Assembly: GCA_015066705.1 (NCBI GenBank)
Contig: SVNV01000007.1
Location: forward strand, 7,573 to 71,572
Source: Ruminococcus sp.
Lineage (GTDB): Bacteria; Bacillota; Clostridia; Oscillospirales; Ruminococcaceae
Direction: 5' to 3'
Length of the DNA stretch: 64,000 nt
Part shown: positions 3,787 to 48,966 of the stretch, one piece after another
How the letters are laid out: each line of letters starts with the position of its first letter
Position numbering within the stretch: position 1 is the stretch's first letter
Notes under the pieces: model-generated
Database searches by the model: none
What the model was told of the DNA's origin: nothing
The model's input: only the letters and a program-made list of their open reading frames with translations
Made by a program: the position numbers and the translations under genes

Positions 3787-4105
3787 TTATTCAGCCTTTT
3801 TTCTTCCTTAACAGCATCCTTATTAGGAATGATTGTGCTGTTATAAAGAATATCCCCCCACGCCGTCAGAGGTAGAATACTAATAGTAGACTTGTTCAGC
3901 TTTTTATCTTTCTTAACAACGTTCTCTATAGGAAAGATTGTGCTGTTATAAAGAATATCCCCCCACGCCGTCAGAGGTAGAATACTAATAAAGTAGACTT
4001 GTTCAGCTTTTTATCTTTCTTATCAACGTTCTCTATAGGAATGATTGTGCTGTTATAAAGAATATCCCCCCACGCCGACAGGCGTGGAGGGATAAGAAAT
4101 AATAC
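3787..4105 (-). repeat. Three degenerate tandem copies (about 99, 107 and 113 bp) of the mscL 3' coding end plus terminator region
   Basis: Copies at about 3787-3885, 3886-3992 and 3993-4105 each contain ttcagcY-ttt..cttaac..attgtgctg..aagaatatccccccacgccg, which matches the true mscL end at 4106-4160. Minus-strand translations LYNSTIIPNKDAVKEEKRLNN, LYNSTIFPIENVVKKDKKLN and LYNSTIIPIENVDKKDKKLN resemble the real tail KSSTIVPNEEVKEEEKAE. Confidence 0.85.
4064..4091 (-). terminator. mscL terminator hairpin (intact only in the repeat copy next to the gene)
   Basis: ccccccacgcc-gaca-ggcgtggaggg hairpin 15 nt downstream of the mscL stop. The distal copies read cacgccgtcagaggtag and have lost the second arm. 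Confidence 0.65.
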
Positions 4106-4622: not shown

Positions 4623-5438
4623 TTATCCGAATATTTCCTTAGCTGCTTCGTCAAGTGCGTTGCCGTTGTAAAGTTCAATAGCACCATTGTCAACCTGCTT
4701 TGCAACAACAGGGTCGATAGGGAGCTTAGCAAGGATTTTAAGCCCGTGCTCTGCGGCGATTTCGTCAATGTGGCTTTCACCGTAAAGCTTGATTTCCTCA
4801 TCACAGCAAGGGCACTTTACATAGCTCATATTCTCAACGATACCGAGAATTTTAACGTTCATCATTTCTGCCATTTTAACAGCCTTGTTAACAATCATAG
4901 AAACAAGGTCCTGAGGTGAAGTAACAACAATAATTCCGTCAAGTGGAATTGACTGGAAAACTGTAAGAGGTACGTCGCCTGTTCCTGGAGGCATATCAAC
5001 AAACATATAATCAACGTCATTCCAGATAACGTCCTGCCAGAACTGCTTTACAACGCCGGCGATAACAGGGCCTCTCCATACAACCGGCTGGTTTTCATCT
5101 TCAAGAAGAAGATTCACCGACATAACTTCAATTCCTGTGTTTGTCTTTACAGGGAGAATTCCTTCTTCGATAGCGTCAGCTTTTTGGGTAAGTCCAAAAG
5201 CCTTAGGAATTGAAGGCCCTGTAATATCAGCGTCAAGAATAGCTGTTCTGAAGCCATTTCTCTGTGAATAAACAGCCATAAGTGAAGTGACAAGTGATTT
5301 TCCTACGCCACCCTTACCACTTACAACACCGATAACCTTTTTGATTTTGCTCATGCTGTGTGGTTCTTCGATGAGACTTTCTTTTCTTGAACTGCAGTCA
5401 GCCTTACAAGTACTGCAATTATGTGTGCATTCGCTCAT
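4623..5438 (-). CDS. Mrp/NBP35-family ATPase (Fe-S cluster carrier, ApbC-like)
   Basis: Deviant Walker A motif SGKGGVGKS and a ParA/MinD-like fold signature. Cys-rich N-terminus (CTHNCSTCKADC) and a CPCC motif. Confidence 0.85.
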   Translation of the reverse strand: MSECTHNCSTCKADCSSRKESLIEEPHSMSKIKKVIGVVSGKGGVGKSLVTSLMAVYSQRNGFRTAILDADITGPSIPKAFGLTQKADAIEEGILPVKTNTGIEVMSVNLLLEDENQPVVWRGPVIAGVVKQFWQDVIWNDVDYMFVDMPPGTGDVPLTVFQSIPLDGIIVVTSPQDLVSMIVNKAVKMAEMMNVKILGIVENMSYVKCPCCDEEIKLYGESHIDEIAAEHGLKILAKLPIDPVVAKQVDNGAIELYNGNALDEAAKEIFG

Positions 5439-5510: not shown

Positions 5511-6593
5511 TTATTCAGCCTTAACCTTTCCTGCTGAGATGTCAACAGTAACTATGTATCCTTCGCAGTTGTTTCCGCTGATTGTGTAGTGATATTCGCT
5601 TCCGTCTGCGTAAATCGGAATCTGTACGTTTGTGGTATCCTTGCTCTTGTCAGCAGGATAATAGTAAATTGCATATCTGTCGCCTGTACCTTCAGCGTTA
5701 ACATAAAGCGGAGTGTCAAGTGAATACTGAGCGATTGAAAGCATGTATTCTTCAAGACAGAGCTTACTGTTGTAGATAAGCTCAGCATGCGGAACACCAA
5801 CGTATCTGAAATGCCAGGTTTCCCCATCGATTCCTGTGATAGTAGCCTTGTCAGGGTCGTATCTCAGAATGAAACCGTACTTTGCACAGTTTTCAAGAAT
5901 CCACTTGTACTCTCCATCGCCTGAGAAGAAAGGGAAACCGTCCTTGGCAAGCTGGAAGTCAACAGCATATCCGCTGTGGTGTTCGCTGTGTCCCGGTTTT
6001 TCAACAAGAGTTGAATAAGCAAGTCCTGTTTTTTCAAGGTCCTTTTCGTAAAGTTCTTTCTGGTATTCTTCGGTTCTGTGACCGCTTACCAGCATAACGT
6101 CCTTGATTCCTTTTGCCTTGTAGAAATCGGCGAGCATAGCGTTTAAGTTTTCAAGAACAATCTTTTTGGCAGTAACTGAATCATCCTTTATTGGCATAAC
6201 AACTACATTGTTTTCGTTCTTTCTGTAATCAAAGCTTGAAACAAGGTCCTGTGGCTCGTCACCCTTGTATGCGTAATCACCGTTTATAAGGATAAGGTCG
6301 CCGTTGTGAAGGGCGGTTGTGTTATCAACATTAACATATTTGTAATCATTGTAAAGCTTTTCTGCGCTGGGCTGAATACTAGGTGTGTTATTGTTGTTTT
6401 GTGTATCAGACGGCTTCTTGTTGTCGGTTTGACTGCTTGGATTTTTTTCCTTTGGATTATCCTTTTTCTTGTCGTCATTTTTTGAGCAACCCTGACAAAT
6501 CAGCACTATAATAAGAATCATTGCACCAAGTGCAACAGCGATATTTTTATATTTAAGTCGTCTCCACAAAGGCTTTTTTGCCATTTTTCTCAC
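5511..6593 (-). CDS. VanY-type D-alanyl-D-alanine carboxypeptidase (peptidase M15B), membrane anchored
   Basis: N-terminal TM/signal anchor. Motifs SGHRTEEYQ, HSEHHSGYAVD and WHFRYVG are characteristic of the VanY/M15B Zn site. Confidence 0.8.
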   Translation of the reverse strand: MRKMAKKPLWRRLKYKNIAVALGAMILIIVLICQGCSKNDDKKKDNPKEKNPSSQTDNKKPSDTQNNNNTPSIQPSAEKLYNDYKYVNVDNTTALHNGDLILINGDYAYKGDEPQDLVSSFDYRKNENNVVVMPIKDDSVTAKKIVLENLNAMLADFYKAKGIKDVMLVSGHRTEEYQKELYEKDLEKTGLAYSTLVEKPGHSEHHSGYAVDFQLAKDGFPFFSGDGEYKWILENCAKYGFILRYDPDKATITGIDGETWHFRYVGVPHAELIYNSKLCLEEYMLSIAQYSLDTPLYVNAEGTGDRYAIYYYPADKSKDTTNVQIPIYADGSEYHYTISGNNCEGYIVTVDISAGKVKAE

Positions 6594-6762
6594 TGTCCTC
6601 TCTGTAAATTACCTGTTCTGTACATTATTCACTGTGTTTTCCACAGCAGATTTTCACATAGTAATTATACCACATCGCCACGCACATTTAAAGGGGATTT
6701 TCAAAGTTAACATTTAATTTACAAATTTCGACAAAAAGAGCGCCGATTTCTCAGCGCCTTGA

Positions 6763-7878
6763 TTACTTTTTGAAAGAGAATAAACCTTTTAATTTGTTCA
6801 TCGTTCTCTTGAAGTTTATAATCGGCTTTGTGAATAGTCTTAATATCAGACAAAACGGATACAAAACCGGAATCTTCTTTATAATCGGATAAGAAAAAGC
6901 AAGCGTCCTGTAGCTTGGGAAAAGCTTTGTAAGCAGGTATTTTGCTTTTCCTTTTTCTCTGATTTCGTTGTGTGTACTTGACTTAACTGTGCCAAAAGCT
7001 CCGCCCTTGTAGACGTATTCAGCCATTTCATCAAAGCTGTTATCCCATTCCTTGTCGCCAAACCACATCTGAGAAAGCAAAAGAATATCAAAGCAAAGCT
7101 TTTTGTACTGATTGTCCTTGAGAATATTACCGATTTTATCCAAATCAATTTTTTCATTGTGGTTTTTGTAGTAAAGCCAGATGTCCATAAAAGCTCTCAG
7201 ACCCACACCACCGTTTATGTAGTGCTTTGCAGCGTGTGTAAGAAGATGCAAAAAGAAGTATGTGCTGTCAAGCTCACATCTGAAGCCCTCTGTCTGCTTT
7301 GAAAAATCAAACGGGTTTTTAAGGTACTTTGCAAAATGCTTTCCGCCAAAAGTGTAATCCGAAAATAAAAATCTGTGTATTTCTACATTCATAATAGGCT
7401 TTTTGGTGTACTCATCGTGGTTTCCGGCATCAAAATGCTCGGCCTCGTAGCCATTCTGAATCATCAAGTCCCTGAGCTTGTGGTGACTGTTTTCTTCGGT
7501 GATGACGTCGATGTCGCACATGTAACGCATATCAGGAGAAGGGTAGAGCTTTTTCAGAATAATTCCCTTGAGAGGAATGTATTTGATTTTGTTTGAATTG
7601 AAGGTTTGCTCTAAAACACCGTATTCGTGAAACTGCTGTAAATCTCTTGCAATAGCCTTGTCACGGTCCTGACGCCAGATTTTCAGAATGTTATCTGACG
7701 GCTTGCTTCCAAGCTGTTCAATTCCGTAAAAAACCATTCCCGAAACGTGATGGAATTTCGATTTTTTGTATATCCCCTCAAAGGTCAGCCCCTCGGGTAA
7801 TTCCTCGGGCTTTTCACCTCTGAGCACCCTTTTCAGAAGGGAAGTTATATATTGGAATTCCGATAAATTGACATTCAT
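6763..7878 (-). CDS. Nucleotidyltransferase-family protein (NTP_transf_5 type, as found in RRE/kinase-associated peptide clusters)
   Basis: 371-aa ORF. Pol-beta-like motif IPLKGIILKKLYPSPDMRYMCDIDVI, then EIHRFLF and GGVGLRAFMDIW. Last gene of the pqqD-peptidase operon. Confidence 0.7.
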   Translation of the reverse strand: MNVNLSEFQYITSLLKRVLRGEKPEELPEGLTFEGIYKKSKFHHVSGMVFYGIEQLGSKPSDNILKIWRQDRDKAIARDLQQFHEYGVLEQTFNSNKIKYIPLKGIILKKLYPSPDMRYMCDIDVITEENSHHKLRDLMIQNGYEAEHFDAGNHDEYTKKPIMNVEIHRFLFSDYTFGGKHFAKYLKNPFDFSKQTEGFRCELDSTYFFLHLLTHAAKHYINGGVGLRAFMDIWLYYKNHNEKIDLDKIGNILKDNQYKKLCFDILLLSQMWFGDKEWDNSFDEMAEYVYKGGAFGTVKSSTHNEIREKGKAKYLLTKLFPSYRTLAFSYPIIKKIPVLYPFCLILRLFTKPIINFKRTMNKLKGLFSFKK

Positions 7879-7896: not shown

Positions 7897-8343
7897 TTAT
7901 TTTTTTAATATTCTTCTCAGCTTGAAAAATACTTTTCTGATGAAAAAGGATTTCCAAAAAAGCAAATAAATTCTGTAACCGAAATTTTTCCCGGAAATCT
8001 CCTTGTCGCCTCTGAAAACTCTTTCCACAACGCCGATAATCTGTTCAGACCTGATACCTTCCTCAAGCATAACCTGATTGTCACCGCAAAGGGTGTATAA
8101 GTCACCTTTTACCTTTACAATCCTGTGTAAAACATAATGCCCGTCATCTCTAAGATAAAAAACAATGTCGTTTTTCTTCAAATCTTTTGCAGGCTTGACA
8201 AGTCCGACCGAATCCTTACCCTCTCTCAATAGTGGAAGCATACTTGTTCCTCTCGGATAAAGCCTGAATTCTCCGCCATTTTCAAGAACAAACCTTATGG
8301 TTTCGTCGTATTCGCTGAGCTTGAATCTTTCTTTTTCAGGCAA
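7897..8343 (-). CDS. S24/S26-family Ser/Lys peptidase (signal-peptidase-I/LexA-like) with C-terminal hydrophobic tail
   Basis: GTSMLPLL (catalytic Ser box) and VLHRIVKVKGD (Lys box, like the SPase I KR..G.PGD motif). TTG start; its first codons overlap the PqqD stop (TTGCCTGA). Confidence 0.7.
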   Translation of the reverse strand: MPEKERFKLSEYDETIRFVLENGGEFRLYPRGTSMLPLLREGKDSVGLVKPAKDLKKNDIVFYLRDDGHYVLHRIVKVKGDLYTLCGDNQVMLEEGIRSEQIIGVVERVFRGDKEISGKNFGYRIYLLFWKSFFIRKVFFKLRRILKK

Positions 8344-8599
8344 GTAAATCTGCCCCTTTCAGCTTGTCAATAAATTCCAGAACGTCAGCTTTTGCAGTAG
8401 CCTCGTCAACATCATAGGTTCCGGATAATTTTGTAGCAAGCTCATCAGCTTCAGCACCTTCGCTTAAAGCCTCCCACAGGAATTTTCCTACAGAATTAAG
8501 TCTGATAATTCCGTTGAAATCACGGCTAGCGCTTCCAACCGCAACAACGATTGTCTGCTCGCCGACCTGTCTGAGCATAAAGCCTTCTTTAATTTTCAT
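8336..8599 (-). CDS. PqqD-family protein (RiPP recognition element / peptide chaperone)
   Basis: ORF 8336..8626. The ATG at 8599 is preferred because an AAGGTG RBS lies 7 nt upstream. About 87 aa, with the typical pattern MLRQVGEQTIVV...LNSVGKFLWEAL.....ELATKL...YDVD...A..DVLEFIDKL (winged-helix PqqD/RRE layout). Confidence 0.8.
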   Translation of the reverse strand: MKIKEGFMLRQVGEQTIVVAVGSASRDFNGIIRLNSVGKFLWEALSEGAEADELATKLSGTYDVDEATAKADVLEFIDKLKGADLLA

Positions 8600-8635
8600 A
8601 AAACCACACCTTTCGCAATAAATCAACTATATAAC

Positions 8636-8729: not shown

Positions 8730-8758
8730 TTGACATTCTGTCGTAATTGTTGTATAAT
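8730..8758 (+). promoter_or_regulatory. Consensus sigma-A promoter for the secreted-protein/precursor array
   Basis: TTGACA (8730-8735), 17 nt, TATAAT (8753-8758); 35 nt upstream of the RBS of ORF 8794. Confidence 0.7.
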
Positions 8759-8793: not shown

Positions 8794-9813
8794 ATGAAAC
8801 TCAAGAAGATTCTTTCTTCAGTTGTTGCACTCGCAATGGCTGTAACAACACTCACAGCATTTACAACTTCAGCAAATGCTAAGACAACATCAGCTAATAT
8901 TTTAGATGAAGCATTCACAATTGCAAGCTGGGATGTACCAGTGGTAGTTGCAAAGGCTGACATCACAGCAGAAGACATTGCTACTACAGGTGCTGACGCT
9001 GTAATCATCGCAGGCGATAAGGTTACAGGCGATTATTATGAATTTATGGTTCAGGCTAATGGTGTTCGTCTTTATCAGGAAAAGATTAACGGACCTTTTG
9101 AAGTAGAAGTTCCACTTTTTGGTAACTATGACCTTGAATTCACAGGTAACGCTGTAGAAATCACTTCAATCAAGTTTGTTGATTCAGATGCTAACGTATC
9201 ATTGACACGTGGTTCACAGGAAGCTGTAATCAGTGCTCCTGGTGCAAACGATACTGTACTTGCTACAGGTGTTGACCTCGGTTGGAGCGGTGCAGAAGGT
9301 ATTACTGTTTCAGGCACTCAGCTTTCAGGTTTGAGATTTGACGGTACAGAATCATTTGTATTCACATCAACAGGTACTGGTAACATTCAGATTCAGGATG
9401 GTAACTGGTCAGGCGTAATTATTGATGGCGGTATTTGGACAGCAGGTGACAAGCTTATTATTCCGATCACACAAACATATGTAGATGGTATTAATGCAAT
9501 CGGTACAGCTCCTGGCGTTGAGCTCCAGATTGTTGACTACGGTACAAAGGCTATCAGATACATCCTTAAGGTTGCTGAAGATGATGTAGATGAAATCGAA
9601 TCAGTATCACTTAAGTTCAGAAACGATTTTGATTATTCTGAAGCATTTGAAACATCAAAGTGCTACAGATCAATTAAGGCTAATGGACAGACAATTTCTG
9701 AAGATGGTTATGTATTTATCACATTTGTAGTAAATAATGTTCCTGGTAACTTCTCATTTGACGAAGCTATCTTCTCATTTGATGGTGAAAGAGCAGCAAC
9801 ACTTGTTGGTTAA
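8794..9813 (+). CDS. Secreted protein of unknown function (Sec signal peptide)
   Basis: Strong AGGAGG RBS. Signal peptide MKLKKILSSVVALAMAVTTLTAFTTSANA|K. Beta-rich, Gly/Thr/Val-rich mature part with no recognisable catalytic motif. Codon choice resembles the highly expressed tuf/fusA genes. Confidence 0.75.
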   Translation: MKLKKILSSVVALAMAVTTLTAFTTSANAKTTSANILDEAFTIASWDVPVVVAKADITAEDIATTGADAVIIAGDKVTGDYYEFMVQANGVRLYQEKINGPFEVEVPLFGNYDLEFTGNAVEITSIKFVDSDANVSLTRGSQEAVISAPGANDTVLATGVDLGWSGAEGITVSGTQLSGLRFDGTESFVFTSTGTGNIQIQDGNWSGVIIDGGIWTAGDKLIIPITQTYVDGINAIGTAPGVELQIVDYGTKAIRYILKVAEDDVDEIESVSLKFRNDFDYSEAFETSKCYRSIKANGQTISEDGYVFITFVVNNVPGNFSFDEAIFSFDGERAATLVG

Positions 9814-9862
9814 TGCGAAGTAAAATAAACATTTAATTTATTATGTAAAGGAGATTTTTATT

Positions 9863-9991
9863 ATGAAGTTTGAATACATCAAGCCAGAACTCGAAATCGA
9901 GTTGTTCGAAGTTGAAGACGTTATTACTCTTTCAATCGTAAACGATGACGAAGAACAGATTCTTTTCGGAGATATCACTTGGGAAAACTAA
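9863..9991 (+). CDS. Unannotated small ORF A1 (42 aa), candidate RiPP precursor with lasso-like leader
   Basis: AAAGGAG RBS 8 nt upstream. Sequence MKFEYIKPELEIELFEVEDVITLSIVNDDEEQILFGDITWEN. The first 24 codons are paralogous to ORF A2, with 9 synonymous and 5 conservative differences. A hairpin terminator follows. Confidence 0.65.
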   Translation: MKFEYIKPELEIELFEVEDVITLSIVNDDEEQILFGDITWEN

Positions 9992-10002
9992 ATAAATGAA
10001 TC

Positions 10003-10032
10003 AAAGGCAGGCATTTTGCCTGCCTTTAATTT
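10003..10032 (+). terminator. Hairpin terminator/attenuator directly after small ORF A1
   Basis: ggcaggc-atttt-gcctgcc followed by TTTAATTT. The next gene starts 18 nt later, so the terminator is probably leaky. Confidence 0.65.
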
Positions 10033-10049
10033 ATAATAAGGTATAGTAA

Positions 10050-10502
10050 ATGAAAAAAGTAATTTGTTTTACACTCATTCTAAGCGTTTGTATGAGTGTT
10101 ATGTGTGGGTGCGATACTTCTAAAGATGAATATAAAAGTATCACCTCAAAAACCACTACAACAGTAAACAGTAGCTCAACGGATATAAATAACGAGCCTA
10201 TTGCTACTACAACTGCAAGTGTAGAAAATTCAGTAAATACATCATCAACATTGACAACAACTGTTAAAACGGAAGCTACGATAGATGATGTTATTACTAC
10301 AACTACAGCTAAAAAGATAGAGAATAAGAATACTACCACAACGACTACTAAATTGACAACCACAAATAAGCCTACAACAACTACCAAAACTACCACTTCG
10401 ACAATTACTACTACTAAAAAACAGGATAGTGGATTGGTTATTGAAGATGAAGAGGATGAAAAAGATGTTGTAATTGATTTTGGTTCAATTATCTGGAAAT
10501 AA
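10050..10502 (+). CDS. Thr-rich lipoprotein L1 (unknown function)
   Basis: Lipobox-like signal peptide (LILSVCMSVMCGC). Long T/N/K low-complexity region. C-terminal acidic motif TTTKKQDSGLVIEDEEDEKDVVIDFGSIIWK shared with L2. Confidence 0.75.
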   Translation: MKKVICFTLILSVCMSVMCGCDTSKDEYKSITSKTTTTVNSSSTDINNEPIATTTASVENSVNTSSTLTTTVKTEATIDDVITTTTAKKIENKNTTTTTTKLTTTNKPTTTTKTTTSTITTTKKQDSGLVIEDEEDEKDVVIDFGSIIWK

Positions 10503-10558
10503 TTTGTTGTGTGACACTGTTTTATATTAAAGAAAAACAACAGACGGAGGTAATCATT

Positions 10559-10696
10559 ATGAAGCTTGAATATTTTAAACCTGAGCTTGAAATCGACGTT
10601 TTTGAAATAGAAGACGTGATTACTCTCAGCAATGGCGATGCTTATGATGATGGTGATTTAAACGATAATAATAATTACGAAAATATTTTTGGTTAA
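10559..10696 (+). CDS. Unannotated small ORF A2 (45 aa), paralogue of A1, candidate RiPP precursor
   Basis: GGAGG RBS 8 nt upstream of the ATG at 10559 (internal Met of track ORF 10511..10696). Sequence MKLEYFKPELEIDVFEIEDVITLSNGDAYDDGDLNDNNNYENIFG. A hairpin terminator follows. Confidence 0.65.
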   Translation: MKLEYFKPELEIDVFEIEDVITLSNGDAYDDGDLNDNNNYENIFG

Positions 10697-10713
10697 CACA
10701 AATTTATATATTC

Positions 10714-10740
10714 AGGGCAGGTTTTTACCTGCCTTTTTTG
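10714..10740 (+). terminator. Rho-independent terminator after small ORF A2
   Basis: ggcaggt-tttt-acctgcc followed by TTTTTT. The stem sequence is related to the terminator after A1. Confidence 0.75.
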
Positions 10741-10769
10741 TTGACATAAATTGATAATAATGATATAAT
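10741..10769 (+). promoter_or_regulatory. Consensus sigma-A promoter for the L2-kinase operon
   Basis: TTGACA (10741-10746), 17 nt, TGaTATAAT (extended -10; hexamer 10764-10769). Confidence 0.7.
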
Positions 10770-10798: not shown

Positions 10799-11311
10799 AT
10801 GAAAAAAATACTTATGATTTTGTGCGTTGCTGCTATGTTTTGTATGACAGCTTGCGAAGGCGAAAAGCATACTAAGATTACATCAAAGTCAACAACTCCT
10901 GCTGAAACTACCACTAAAAAACAGGGCGGACTTGTAATTGAAGATGAATATAACGCTGACGAAGATGATGAAAATGCTATTGATTTCAATGATATTTTTA
11001 AAGATGTAAGTTATACCGATACTCCTGCAGCTACACAGCCTGTTGTCACAACAAAACCTGATGCTGACGAAAGCGATAAGCCGGATTCATCCAAAACTAC
11101 AACAACTGTAAAAAAAGATGATAAGGTAACTACAACAACTTCAAAAAAGGAAACAAATAAAACCACGACTACTACCACAAAACCATCAACAATCACCACA
11201 ACAACTACAAAGAAGCCGGTTGAATCCACAAATACAGGAAGCGGCCTTGACGTTGAAGATACAGCGCCGAACGACAACCTTGATTGGGGCCCGCTTGTTC
11301 CGATAAACTGA
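10799..11311 (+). CDS. Thr-rich lipoprotein L2 (paralogue of L1)
   Basis: Lipobox (AAMFCMTAC). The motif TTTKKQGGLVIEDEYNADEDDENAIDFNDIFK sits near the N-terminus, followed by a long T/K/P-rich region. The stop is 1 nt before the kinase ATG. Confidence 0.75.
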   Translation: MKKILMILCVAAMFCMTACEGEKHTKITSKSTTPAETTTKKQGGLVIEDEYNADEDDENAIDFNDIFKDVSYTDTPAATQPVVTTKPDADESDKPDSSKTTTTVKKDDKVTTTTSKKETNKTTTTTTKPSTITTTTTKKPVESTNTGSGLDVEDTAPNDNLDWGPLVPIN

Positions 11312-11312
11312 T

Positions 11313-12017
11313 ATGATTAGAAAATACAAAATTTGCGACTTGATAGTTGAATGTGATTTCCGCTTTGAAACTATGCTTTCACGAAGCGAGAAATTTGCAT
11401 TTGATACCGAAAAAGAGGCTGATATTACTATCGGCTATGATAAAAAACACCACGAATTTCTTTTGAAAAACGCAGAAAATTTCACAGAAAAGGATTGCGA
11501 AGTAATGTCAACGGGGAAGAAGTTTTATAATGAACTTCTGAACTTTGACGGCTTTATGCTTCATTCTTCGGCAGTTATGGTTGACGGAAAGGTTTTTCTT
11601 TTTTCTGCACCAAGCGGAACGGGGAAGTCTACCCATACAAGACAATGGCGTAAGCTTTTCGGCGAAAGAGCAGTAATCATTAACGATGATAAACCTGCAA
11701 TAAGAATTGTTGACGGTAAAATCTATGCCTATGGAACCCCTTGGAGCGGAAGCTCTGAGCTCAATAGTACCGATTTCGGAATTCTTCAGGGGATATGTGT
11801 TCTTTCCCGTAGTGAGGAAAATTATATCCGACCTCTAGACCAGAGTAAAGCGATTTTCTCCGTTTTAAATCAGACTATAAGACCTGCCGACGAAAAGAAG
11901 ATGGATAAACTTCTTGCAGTGCTTGATAAGGTAGTAAGCGGAGTGAAAATCTGGCAGATGGGCTGTAATATTTCCACTGACGCAGCACAACTTGCATATG
12001 ACGCTATGAGTAAATAA
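11313..12017 (+). CDS. HPr-kinase-like P-loop kinase (lasso-peptide kinase-like)
   Basis: LHSSAVMVDGKVFLFSAPSGTGKSTHTRQW...AVIINDD matches the HprK C-terminal domain layout (H-G/S..V...G..vL..G.SG.GKS...DD). Translationally coupled to L2. Confidence 0.75.
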   Translation: MIRKYKICDLIVECDFRFETMLSRSEKFAFDTEKEADITIGYDKKHHEFLLKNAENFTEKDCEVMSTGKKFYNELLNFDGFMLHSSAVMVDGKVFLFSAPSGTGKSTHTRQWRKLFGERAVIINDDKPAIRIVDGKIYAYGTPWSGSSELNSTDFGILQGICVLSRSEENYIRPLDQSKAIFSVLNQTIRPADEKKMDKLLAVLDKVVSGVKIWQMGCNISTDAAQLAYDAMSK

Positions 12018-12034
12018 AAAAAAGTACCTAACAT

Positions 12035-12339
12035 TAAGGCGGATAGTTATATAGAAGTATATTATATGAATTTATCGGGGCGAAACCTTTCTGAAGAAAG
12101 GTTGTCCCCCGAACCCCCTTCCAAAGACTTTAATATTAAAATAACTATCCCCCGCTGTGCGGGGGATAGTTATTTTAAATACTGAAGTTTTAGGAAAGGA
12201 GTTTGAGGATGACTCCCCACAAGGTGGGGAGATGTCTGCGTAGCAGACAGAGGGGACAGGCGACCGTTGGGAGAACCCTTTTTCAAAAGGGTTTTCCTCA
12301 ATAAGTCCGTATAATACTTCTTTATGACCACTCACCTTA
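12035..12339 (-). mobile_element. MITE-like structured repeat, copy 1 (305 bp including flanking TA), inserted in the loop of a bidirectional terminator
   Basis: About 95% identical over shared parts to the reverse complement of 48468-48710. Imperfect 24-30 bp terminal inverted repeats (AGGTGAGTGGTCATAAAGAAGTAT / AGGCGGATAGTTATATAGAAGTAT). TA on both sides. Flanks aaagtacctaaca / tgttaggtacttt are perfect complements, i.e. a split terminator stem. Confidence 0.7.
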
Positions 12340-12357
12340 TGTTAGGTACTTTTTTGT

Positions 12358-48800: not shown

Positions 48801-48966
48801 GTGGCTTGTGCCGGATAGGATTTTAATGTCAATCCGAGATATAGGTGTGCGGGTCCTGTGCAATGAAACGCTGTGAACCATGTCAGGCGGGGAACCGAGC
48901 AGCATTAAGCAGTTTGTTTTGTGTGACGCAGTTTCGCCTGCATACCTGTATGTCGGATTGAATTTT
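48801..48966 (+). ncRNA. ffs: Signal recognition particle RNA (4.5S/scRNA); boundaries approximate
   Basis: gggtcctgtgcaatg...tgaaccatgtcaggcggggaaccgagcagcattaag closely matches the domain IV region remembered from Bacillus subtilis scRNA (GGGTCCTGCGCAATG...TGAACCATGTCAGGTCCGGAAGGAAGCAGCATTAAG). A long closing helix (tccgagatataggtgtgcg / cgcctgcatacctgtatgtcgga) is followed by a T-run. The gene occupies the canonical position upstream of dnaX-ybaB-recR. Confidence 0.88.

Follow-up and report, generated by a model that had tools for sequence, protein, structure and literature searches.

Within a 64,000-nucleotide stretch of the Ruminococcus sp. contig SVNV01000007.1 (hereafter the window), two short open reading frames (ORFs), A1 and A2, encode acidic paralogous peptides that we consider here as candidate precursors of a peptide that is made by ribosomes and modified after translation (RiPP). 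They are located on the plus strand in the order secreted protein-A1-lipoprotein 1-A2-lipoprotein 2-ScmC, and this unit is divergent from a second one containing PqqD, peptidase and NTP_transf_5 genes (Table 1). The genes flanking the cluster are housekeeping ones. An earlier reading of the DNA letters (the original prediction) had pointed out both ORFs, their Shine-Dalgarno sites and the related hairpin terminators behind them, and all of these were found where it had placed them. The two hairpins share 19 of 22 bases, and the one following A1 may be an attenuator ahead of the lipoprotein 1 gene. The description of both ORFs as unannotated has to be corrected, because public JGI/ENA assemblies hold the exact A1 and A2 proteins (P0002 and P0001, respectively) as unnamed predictions; they have been called already and are only uncharacterised.

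Table 1. Features of the A1/A2 cluster in window coordinates (aa, amino acids).
Feature	Position	Strand	Description
A1	9863-9991	+	42-aa precursor-like peptide, MKFEYIKPELEIELFEVEDVITLSIVNDDEEQILFGDITWEN; leader M1-S24
A1 predicted core	9935-9988		IVNDDEEQILFGDITWEN
A2	10559-10696	+	45-aa paralogue of A1, MKLEYFKPELEIDVFEIEDVITLSNGDAYDDGDLNDNNNYENIFG; leader M1-S24
A2 predicted core			NGDAYDDGDLNDNNNYENIFG
Shine-Dalgarno of A1	9847-9853	+	AAAGGAG
Shine-Dalgarno of A2	10546-10550	+	GGAGG
Hairpin directly 3' of A1	10003-10027	+	Intrinsic-terminator-like; 11-bp stem with 6 G-C pairs
Hairpin 3' of A2	10714-10735	+	Terminator-like, with T-run
NTP_transf_5 nucleotidyltransferase	6763-7878	-	371 aa; Pfam PF14907, E = 5.5e-46, full-length match; kept in related cassettes
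S24/S26-like serine peptidase, SipW/Sec11 type	7897-8343	-	148 aa; Pfam Peptidase_S24, E = 7.4e-5
PqqD-family RiPP recognition element	8336-8599	-	87 aa from ATG at 8599; Pfam PF05402, E = 7e-17
Secreted protein	8794-9813	+	339 aa; Sec-type signal peptide; no Pfam family; gene directly 5' of A1
Thr-rich lipoprotein 1	10050-10502	+	150 aa; acidic tail GLVIEDEEDEKDVVIDFGSIIWK resembling A1 core
Thr-rich lipoprotein 2	10799-11311	+	170 aa; same acidic motif, GGLVIEDEYNADEDDENAIDFNDIF; orthologue in L001
ScmC-family kinase-like protein	11313-12017	+	234 aa; PEPCK/HprK P-loop fold; start abuts lipoprotein 2 stop codon
Sigma-70 promoter	8664-8636	-	Perfect, 12/12 (TTGACA-17-TATAAT); drives PqqD-peptidase-NTP_transf_5
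Sigma-70 promoter	8730-8758	+	Perfect, 12/12; drives secreted-protein/peptide unit
Sigma-70 promoter	10741-10769	+	Perfect, 12/12; drives lipoprotein-2/ScmC unit

The first 24 codons of A1 and A2 align as 10 identical, 9 synonymous and 5 non-synonymous but conservative pairs (F/L, I/F, E/D, L/V, V/I), exactly the tally given by the original prediction. Nucleotide differences in this leader number 5, 1 and 13 at codon positions 1, 2 and 3, and the proportions of synonymous and non-synonymous differences (Nei-Gojobori) are pS = 0.83 and pN = 0.14. Beyond residue 24 the tails are unalignable, and both are acidic and rich in aromatic residues, as had been described. The excess of synonymous differences, from which translation had been deduced, is itself sound (binomial p = 2.5e-4). 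It does not suffice as proof of the sense frame, because one antisense frame has the same wobble positions as the sense frame and is conserved almost equally between A1 and A2, so that this pair alone cannot tell sense from antisense. The hairpins 3' of both ORFs are related too, and in principle the similarity could have arisen by duplication of DNA that is not coding, such as an RNA structure or the terminator region, or could belong to an antisense ORF. We give this explanation next to no probability. In 24 homologues from diverse loci, the sense frame always begins with Met-Lys/Arg and a GGAGG-type site is correctly spaced 5' of nearly all of them, whereas each antisense frame has stops in many and none is open throughout. 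Thousands of homologous clusters, free of frameshifts and stops, retain the sense ORF, the Met-Lys-Lys start and the amino-acid motif despite widely diverged DNA. Searches of Rfam with the A1/A2 region and with the whole window gave no relevant match at the gathering threshold, so an overlapping RNA structure is not indicated as the cause of conservation; the matches below threshold were at chance level and centred on the hairpins. This family-wide evidence settles the question of sense versus antisense, and a non-coding or antisense origin of the A1/A2 similarity is refuted by it.

Comparisons of paralogues and of orthologues place the pN/pS ratio of the leader at about 0.1-0.2. When the A2 core was compared with its orthologue in a related locus (L001; related loci and peptides carry L and P numbers), pS was 0.50 and pN 0.17, a ratio of about 0.34, indicating that the core is constrained as well, less strongly than the leader. 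Cores are wholly different between paralogues and recognisably conserved between orthologues, namely between A1 and P0003 from the syntenic locus L004, and between A2 and P0004-P0006 from L001-L003. The C-terminal region can therefore be called hypervariable, as it was at first, between paralogues and not between orthologues. Substitution patterns and reading frames lend strong support to the original claim that both ORFs are real, translated genes and that purifying selection acts on the proteins they encode.

The family to which they belong was then delimited at increasing depth. A narrow word-index search returned 7 proteins close to A1 and A2, in the syntenic loci L001-L004, and an alignment of 19 locus-derived peptides led by word-index search to 129 protein clusters. 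Exhaustive HMMER searching of 1.84 billion representatives with a 62-member profile (E <= 0.001) yielded 6,513 peptide clusters, all listed matches being 30-87 aa long. The family that includes A1 and A2 is therefore very large, and it still has no name; its sources are Clostridia (Oscillospirales) of gut and rumen, and one of its peptides (P0139) occurs in 739 blocks of the assembly index. Anchored on a nearly invariant proline, the leader consensus reads M-K-K-x-[Y/F]-x-x-P-E-[LVI]-E-[IV]-x-x-F-x-V-E-D-[IV]-I-T-[A]-S, or in compact form MKKxYxxPE[LI]E[IV]xxFxVED[VI]IT[AT]S. In 125 members and 143 further family sequences, conservation ends after this serine, 16 residues past the invariant proline, and the sequences are diverse thereafter. 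The architecture of conserved leader and variable core that had been proposed from two peptides thus holds across the family. The 125 cores are 9-41 residues long (median 27), all of them net negative with a median charge of -4, and contain much D, G and N. In 88% of them, at least one of the last six positions is aromatic, and a single one contains Cys. None of the peptides has a Sec signal.

Some loci have two peptide genes (L100, 1486-2003; L101, 557-1092; L103, 5998-6562). The product of the second has the same leader, a length of 94-108 aa and a conserved C-terminus ending in GGNIVQEGLNNLYENFLNRF.

No model in Pfam or NCBIfam covers these peptides and no member has a name. In the searchable literature we found no paper on them or on the enzyme cassette described below, including by searches with leader strings; for ScmC, unrelated acronyms dominated the search results. 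The only hits, all below threshold, were to models of thiazolylpeptide-type bacteriocin precursors: in 7-8 of 62 members, residues 9-28 are matched by TIGR03892 and NF033400 with E = 0.006-0.06. These matches reach only 13.7-16.2 bits against cut-offs of 25-30 and are limited to the acidic leader segment. The practically Cys-free cores are not of the Ser/Thr/Cys-rich kind, and there are no YcaO, dehydratase or cyclase genes nearby. The chance that A1 and A2 are such precursors is negligible; failed cut-offs and core composition already refute this identity.

The genes accompanying the peptides include a set of enzymes, here called the cassette, made up of a PqqD-family RiPP recognition element (RRE), a ScmC/HprK-fold kinase, a SipW/Sec11-type peptidase and an NTP_transf_5 nucleotidyltransferase, often together with an ABC exporter. 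ScmC homologues carry PF27840 on record. A sequence-profile search of the PDB with the window ScmC gave no match and a fold search was required: its AF2 model (pLDDT 93) has PEPCK and HprK/P as best Foldseek matches, with a probability of 1.00. Residues H84, G102, G104, K105, S106, D125 and D126 are invariant across 26 ScmC homologues, and they correspond to the H...GxxGxGKS...DD motif of lasso-peptide kinases (PMC10368454). For one of the latter, BsfK, mutagenesis has demonstrated the need for the catalytic motif, and activity is strongly stimulated by the PqqD-type RRE partner B1 (PMC10368454). In the window PqqD, whose ORF extends to a TTG at 8626 and whose homologues begin with MKIKxG, the best NCBIfam matches are likewise lasso B1 PqqD chaperones, below cut-off.

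The peptidase retains the Ser box (GxSMxP), His-Arg box and Gly-Asp box of SipW/Sec11-type signal peptidases, with G32, S34, M35, P37, D59, H73, R74, G87, D88 and E94 invariant in 33-40 homologues. It has four profile matches in the PDB, of which the three best are to type I signal peptidases or to SEC11C and the last is to a fusion of maltose-binding protein (MBP) with signal peptidase IB. By inspection, its N-terminus (MPEKERFKLSEYDETIRF) is hydrophilic and devoid of a membrane anchor, and its C-terminus forms a basic amphipathic helix. It is probably a cytosolic, membrane-peripheral enzyme and makes a candidate leader peptidase. Type I signal peptidases prefer small residues at positions -3 and -1 of the cleavage site. 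The leader end, T(-3)-x-S(-1), fits this rule and could be such a site. Compared with SipW/Sec11 type I signal peptidases, the window enzyme is thus alike in its Ser, His-Arg and Gly-Asp motifs, in its best PDB and NCBIfam similarity and in the fit of the T-x-S site; it differs in its two termini and its sub-cut-off scores, and its presumed substrate is a cytoplasmic leader peptide instead of a Sec signal peptide.

Like the kinase and the recognition protein, the leader was compared with lasso systems. YxxPxL is a conserved motif of lasso leaders, spanning positions -17 to -12 (PMC10368454), and the present leader contains Y5-x-x-P8-x-L10, at a greater distance from the junction, and ends with T22-x-S24. 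When the family profile was compared with precursors of predicted rumen lasso peptides (PMC7533575), the first 15 residues aligned with an hhalign probability of 68% and E = 4.6e-5. Those Lachnospiraceae and Ruminococcus precursors (Table 3 of PMC7533575) show MK.W..PE.E.L.I where the present family shows MKK.Y..PE.EI..F; they likewise come from clostridial hosts and have HprK-like kinase and nucleotidyltransferase genes in their neighbourhood. Their cores have Gly1 and Asp8/9, and LasB and LasC are encoded next to them; the A1/A2 family has neither. By its sequence, the N-terminal half of the A1/A2-family leader resembles clostridial lasso leaders of the form [Y/W]xxPx[L/I/V].

The enzymes known to tailor lasso peptides in clusters of the paeninodin and pseudomycoidin types are HprK-like kinases and nucleotidyltransferases (PMC8498205). 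Several features recur in the tailored lasso clusters (paeninodin, pseudomycoidin and Bradymonas bsf) and in the present system. The precursor is short, its leader carries [Y/W]xxPx[L/I/V] and a Thr lies close to the site of cleavage; the PqqD-type RRE is a separate protein; the kinase has the HprK fold and H...GxGKS...DD; an ABC exporter is frequent; and the cluster includes a nucleotidyltransferase gene, as reported for pseudomycoidin (PMC8498205, PMC10368454). In view of these likenesses, A1 and A2 might themselves be lasso precursors whose cyclase and B2 protease are encoded elsewhere in the genome, S24 being core residue 1 and the macrolactam being closed to Glu or Asp at position 7 or 8. 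Lasso cores begin with Gly, Ala, Ser or Cys and have Asp or Glu at position 7-9; counted from S24, A1 does have E7/E8 and A2 has D7/D8. Over the family, by contrast, D or E is present at core positions 7-9 in only 57 of 125 members despite the abundance of acidic residues, and some cores have only 9-10 residues. Neither an asparagine-synthetase-like cyclase nor a transglutaminase-like B2 protease was found in the Pfam-annotated genes of the related loci L001, L002, L004, L085-L090 and L109-L111, or in a Pfam scan of large window ORFs (480-730 aa) that covered 10 out of 12; the two remaining ORFs of this size are, by synteny with L001, a FAD-dependent enzyme and an alpha-amylase. In addition, the spacing between the YxxPxL motif and the junction exceeds that of lasso leaders, the family leader is about 4 residues longer, and a peptidase of a different class, the SipW/Sec11-type enzyme, is conserved in the cassette where lasso clusters have B2. 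Further differences from the tailored lasso clusters are that the kinase belongs to ScmC (PF27840) and not to Hpr_kinase_C, that the cores have no C-terminal Ser, and that a large secreted protein and acidic-tailed lipoproteins are found in the neighbourhood. Because neither cyclase nor B2 occurs in the annotated loci or the scanned window ORFs, and more than half of the members break the rule of an acidic residue at 7-9, we do not file the peptides as lasso peptides, and consider a lasso identity highly improbable. Evolutionarily, the system appears related to those lasso clusters of Firmicutes that are tailored by a kinase and a nucleotidyltransferase, as a cyclase-less form that has kept the recognition and tailoring half and uses another leader peptidase.

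Another system to compare is the SynChlorMet (SCM) cassette, in which a ScmC-family protein is also encoded with a PqqD-family protein, implying modification of a ribosomal peptide. No precursor is known for SCM. The SCM cassette has two radical SAM/SPASM maturases, and none is present in the window cluster or the related loci; the only radical SAM ORF of the window lies 46 kb from the cluster. The window ScmC also belongs to a distant subfamily (its score against NCBIfam TIGR04249 is 25.9 bits, with E = 5.4e-6, and the cut-off is 125), is found in gut Clostridia and has the S26-like peptidase and NTP_transf_5 as partners. The combination of PqqD, ScmC, NTP_transf_5 and peptidase was not found described in the searchable literature.

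A1 and A2 show the generic traits of RRE-dependent RiPP precursors, a conserved leader and a variable core, together with a PqqD protein, tailoring enzymes and a peptidase. With slightly more belief than doubt, we favour the view that they are precursors of an undescribed, cyclase-less, lasso-related linear RiPP. According to this proposal, PqqD would bind the leader at [Y/F]xxPx[L/I/V], as lasso B1 proteins do, and present the peptide to the ScmC/HprK-fold kinase, which would phosphorylate a hydroxyl. The likeliest site of phosphorylation would be the conserved T-x-S at the leader/core junction, with Ser, Thr or Tyr of the core as an alternative; the junction is the better phosphate-acceptor candidate because 10 of 125 cores have no Ser, Thr or Tyr at all. 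The NTP_transf_5 protein may then extend the phosphate, as in the phosphoglycosylated lasso peptide pseudomycoidin, whose nucleotidyltransferase belongs to the same Pfam family. Cleavage by the SipW/Sec11-type peptidase after S24 (T(-3)-x-S(-1)) would release peptides of 18 residues from A1 and 21 residues from A2. These anionic peptides would be exported, many related loci having an ABC exporter that the window does not, and would act outside the cell with the co-encoded secreted protein and the acidic-tailed lipoproteins. The hairpins 3' of A1 and A2 would provide for surplus precursor transcript together with read-through into the downstream genes.

The RiPP reading, already proposed in the original prediction, draws its support from genomic context. 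We used two sets of loci to examine how closely peptides and cassette are linked: 16 informative loci found through the peptide, and 80 ScmC loci from species-representative genomes found through the kinase. In the former, 12 of 16 have the cassette beside the peptide. Peptide and cassette occur together in the window, L001, L002, L004, L085/86, L087/88, L089/90 (ScmC only), L097, L098 and L108-L111; a fused ABC exporter lies between peptidase and NTP_transf_5 in L085, L109 and L111, and one adjoins the cassette genes in L097 and L108. The usual operon among the 80 kinase-first loci is ScmC-PqqD-peptidase(-NTP_transf_5). The ScmC kinase family itself has 6,453 matches in a set of 5.8 billion proteins, and it occurs in at least 588 loci of species-representative genomes, nearly all of them from uncultured Oscillospirales or other Clostridia of guts and rumens.

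Several observations weigh against precursors of a linear RiPP. The chemistry of modification and every biochemical step (modification, binding and cleavage) are inferred. No universal hydroxyl acceptor is obvious, because some cores have no Ser, Thr or Tyr and, at the junction, the T is found in just about 74% of the family, as is the S. The enzymes are distant from characterised families: besides its low TIGR04249 score, the window ScmC has no match to Pfam Hpr_kinase_C even at E <= 10, and all matches of the peptidase in Pfam, NCBIfam and the PDB are under curated cut-offs (26.1 versus 51.85 bits for TIGR02228, the archaeal-type signal peptidase I; 22.9 versus 23.3 for Pfam S24; SipW below cut-off). 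The window cluster contains no exporter gene. Adjacency of homologues to PqqD and kinase genes turned out to be frequent and not universal, as four of the 16 peptide-first loci (L100, L103, L105/L104 and L106) have no cassette within about 6 kb of the peptide, and a family peptide lies within 7 kb in only 12 of the 80 kinase-first loci. When acidic small ORFs were sought beside the other ScmC operons, none was found in most loci; 68 of 80 have no family peptide within 7 kb. Finally, the gene directly 5' of the peptide is almost always one for a large protein with a Sec signal, even in cassette-free loci, which is atypical of RiPP clusters. The linkage between peptide and cassette is strong, not obligatory; this would fit precursors served in trans, and is also the main argument for a different explanation.

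That explanation accepts the peptides as real and denies that the cassette acts on them. They would be unmodified partners or effectors of the large secreted protein encoded just 5', for example a trans-acting subunit, a chaperone-like or competitor peptide mimicking the acidic-aromatic tails of envelope proteins encoded nearby, or a signalling pro-peptide, and ScmC, PqqD and the peptidase would serve some other substrate. We regard it as unlikely, with a weight that is still appreciable. Large secreted proteins precede the peptide in the window, L006-L010, L039, L075, L083-L085, L089, L097, L098, L100, L105, L106, L108, L109 and L111, of which L100, L105 and L106 are cassette-free, and L109 has two consecutive modules of big protein and peptide. 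These proteins range from 339 to more than 2,000 aa, have Big_2, Flg_new_2, SLH-like or no known domains, and are related over their C-terminal 100 aa or so by a weak, transitive similarity. Motifs of envelope proteins encoded nearby can also reappear in peptide cores. In the window, the core of A1 resembles the tail of lipoprotein 1 (VIEDEEDEKDVVIDFGSIIWK, 10431-10499; Smith-Waterman score against shuffles, p = 0.0055), a resemblance that is kept in L004, and the acidic motif is found in lipoprotein 2 as well (10922-10996). In L039, the SLH-like protein encoded next to the peptide (6039-6926) has an acidic tail that repeats the whole nine-residue core DNDIADPWG of that peptide (4742-4843). 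Against this explanation, the peptides have no Sec signal and begin with a highly conserved 24-residue block resembling RRE-binding lasso leaders. Three quarters of the informative peptide loci carry PqqD, ScmC and the peptidase, often with an ABC exporter. In L087 and L110, the genes that flank the peptides are those of PqqD and ScmC, and a large secreted protein is not encoded next to them.

The gene content of close relatives was also compared. L004, a close relative whose neighbouring proteins are 86-88% identical, has A1 and both lipoproteins and no A2; where the window has A2 (10503-10713), the stop codon of lipoprotein 1 in L004 is followed directly by the same hairpin and the lipoprotein-2 promoter (3857-3960). 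The more distant L001 has an A2-type peptide only. Peptide genes are therefore gained and lost between close relatives.

Some modules of a Big_2 protein, peptide and ScmC are flanked by integrase and serine-recombinase genes (L089/L090, 1-16177; L109, 1514-3055), which suggests that they are mobile. Other cassettes lie inside surface-polysaccharide clusters (L087/L088, 1-12800; L110, 1-12850; L085, 1-2115) or beside a glycosyltransferase gene (L039, 7979-9369), and the polysaccharide genes around them include GT2, Wzy, Wzz, Wzm/Wzt, dTDP-rhamnose and pyruvyl transferase genes. This context is a hint at possible sugar involvement in the NTP_transf_5 step.

In the window, the interval between ScmC and a convergent alpha-amylase gene (12018-12357), possibly a small repeat element, has a perfect inverted repeat of 17 nucleotides at its ends (AAAAAAGTACCTAACAT ... 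ATGTTAGGTACTTTTTT) and several G+C-rich hairpins, including a bidirectional terminator-like one at 12148-12165. The sole Rfam match of the window at the gathering threshold is a gene for the bacterial small signal recognition particle RNA at 48847-48946 (RF00169, 65.7 bits), and no tRNA genes were found in the window.

Returning to A1 and A2 as precursors of a linear RiPP, the pairing with secreted proteins, the tail mimicry and the polysaccharide context suggest an extracellular, envelope-related role. Tentatively, and with rather more doubt than conviction, we extend the proposal to an unrecognised, very large class of linear anionic RiPPs that are made with a cyclase-less lasso toolkit and whose products work with surface proteins bearing the mimicked acidic-aromatic tails. 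Within such a class, the peptides might, for instance, dock to the large secreted protein of the gene directly 5', bring about its release or compete for it, a suggestion that we likewise put forward as possible and no further.

If the RiPP reading is true, the ScmC/PqqD cassette, present in at least 588 species-representative loci and more than 6,000 protein clusters, would gain candidate substrates; we know of no precursor for ScmC proteins so far. RiPP biosynthesis would gain a new enzyme combination and probably a new type of product, linear phospho- or phosphoglycosyl-peptides, and the tailoring half of lasso clusters would prove able to function as a pathway by itself. Attention would also be drawn to thousands of small genes without a name in abundant gut bacteria. 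The constant pairing with surface proteins suggests that their products have a role in the envelope or in cell-cell interaction, and not that of a classical bacteriocin.

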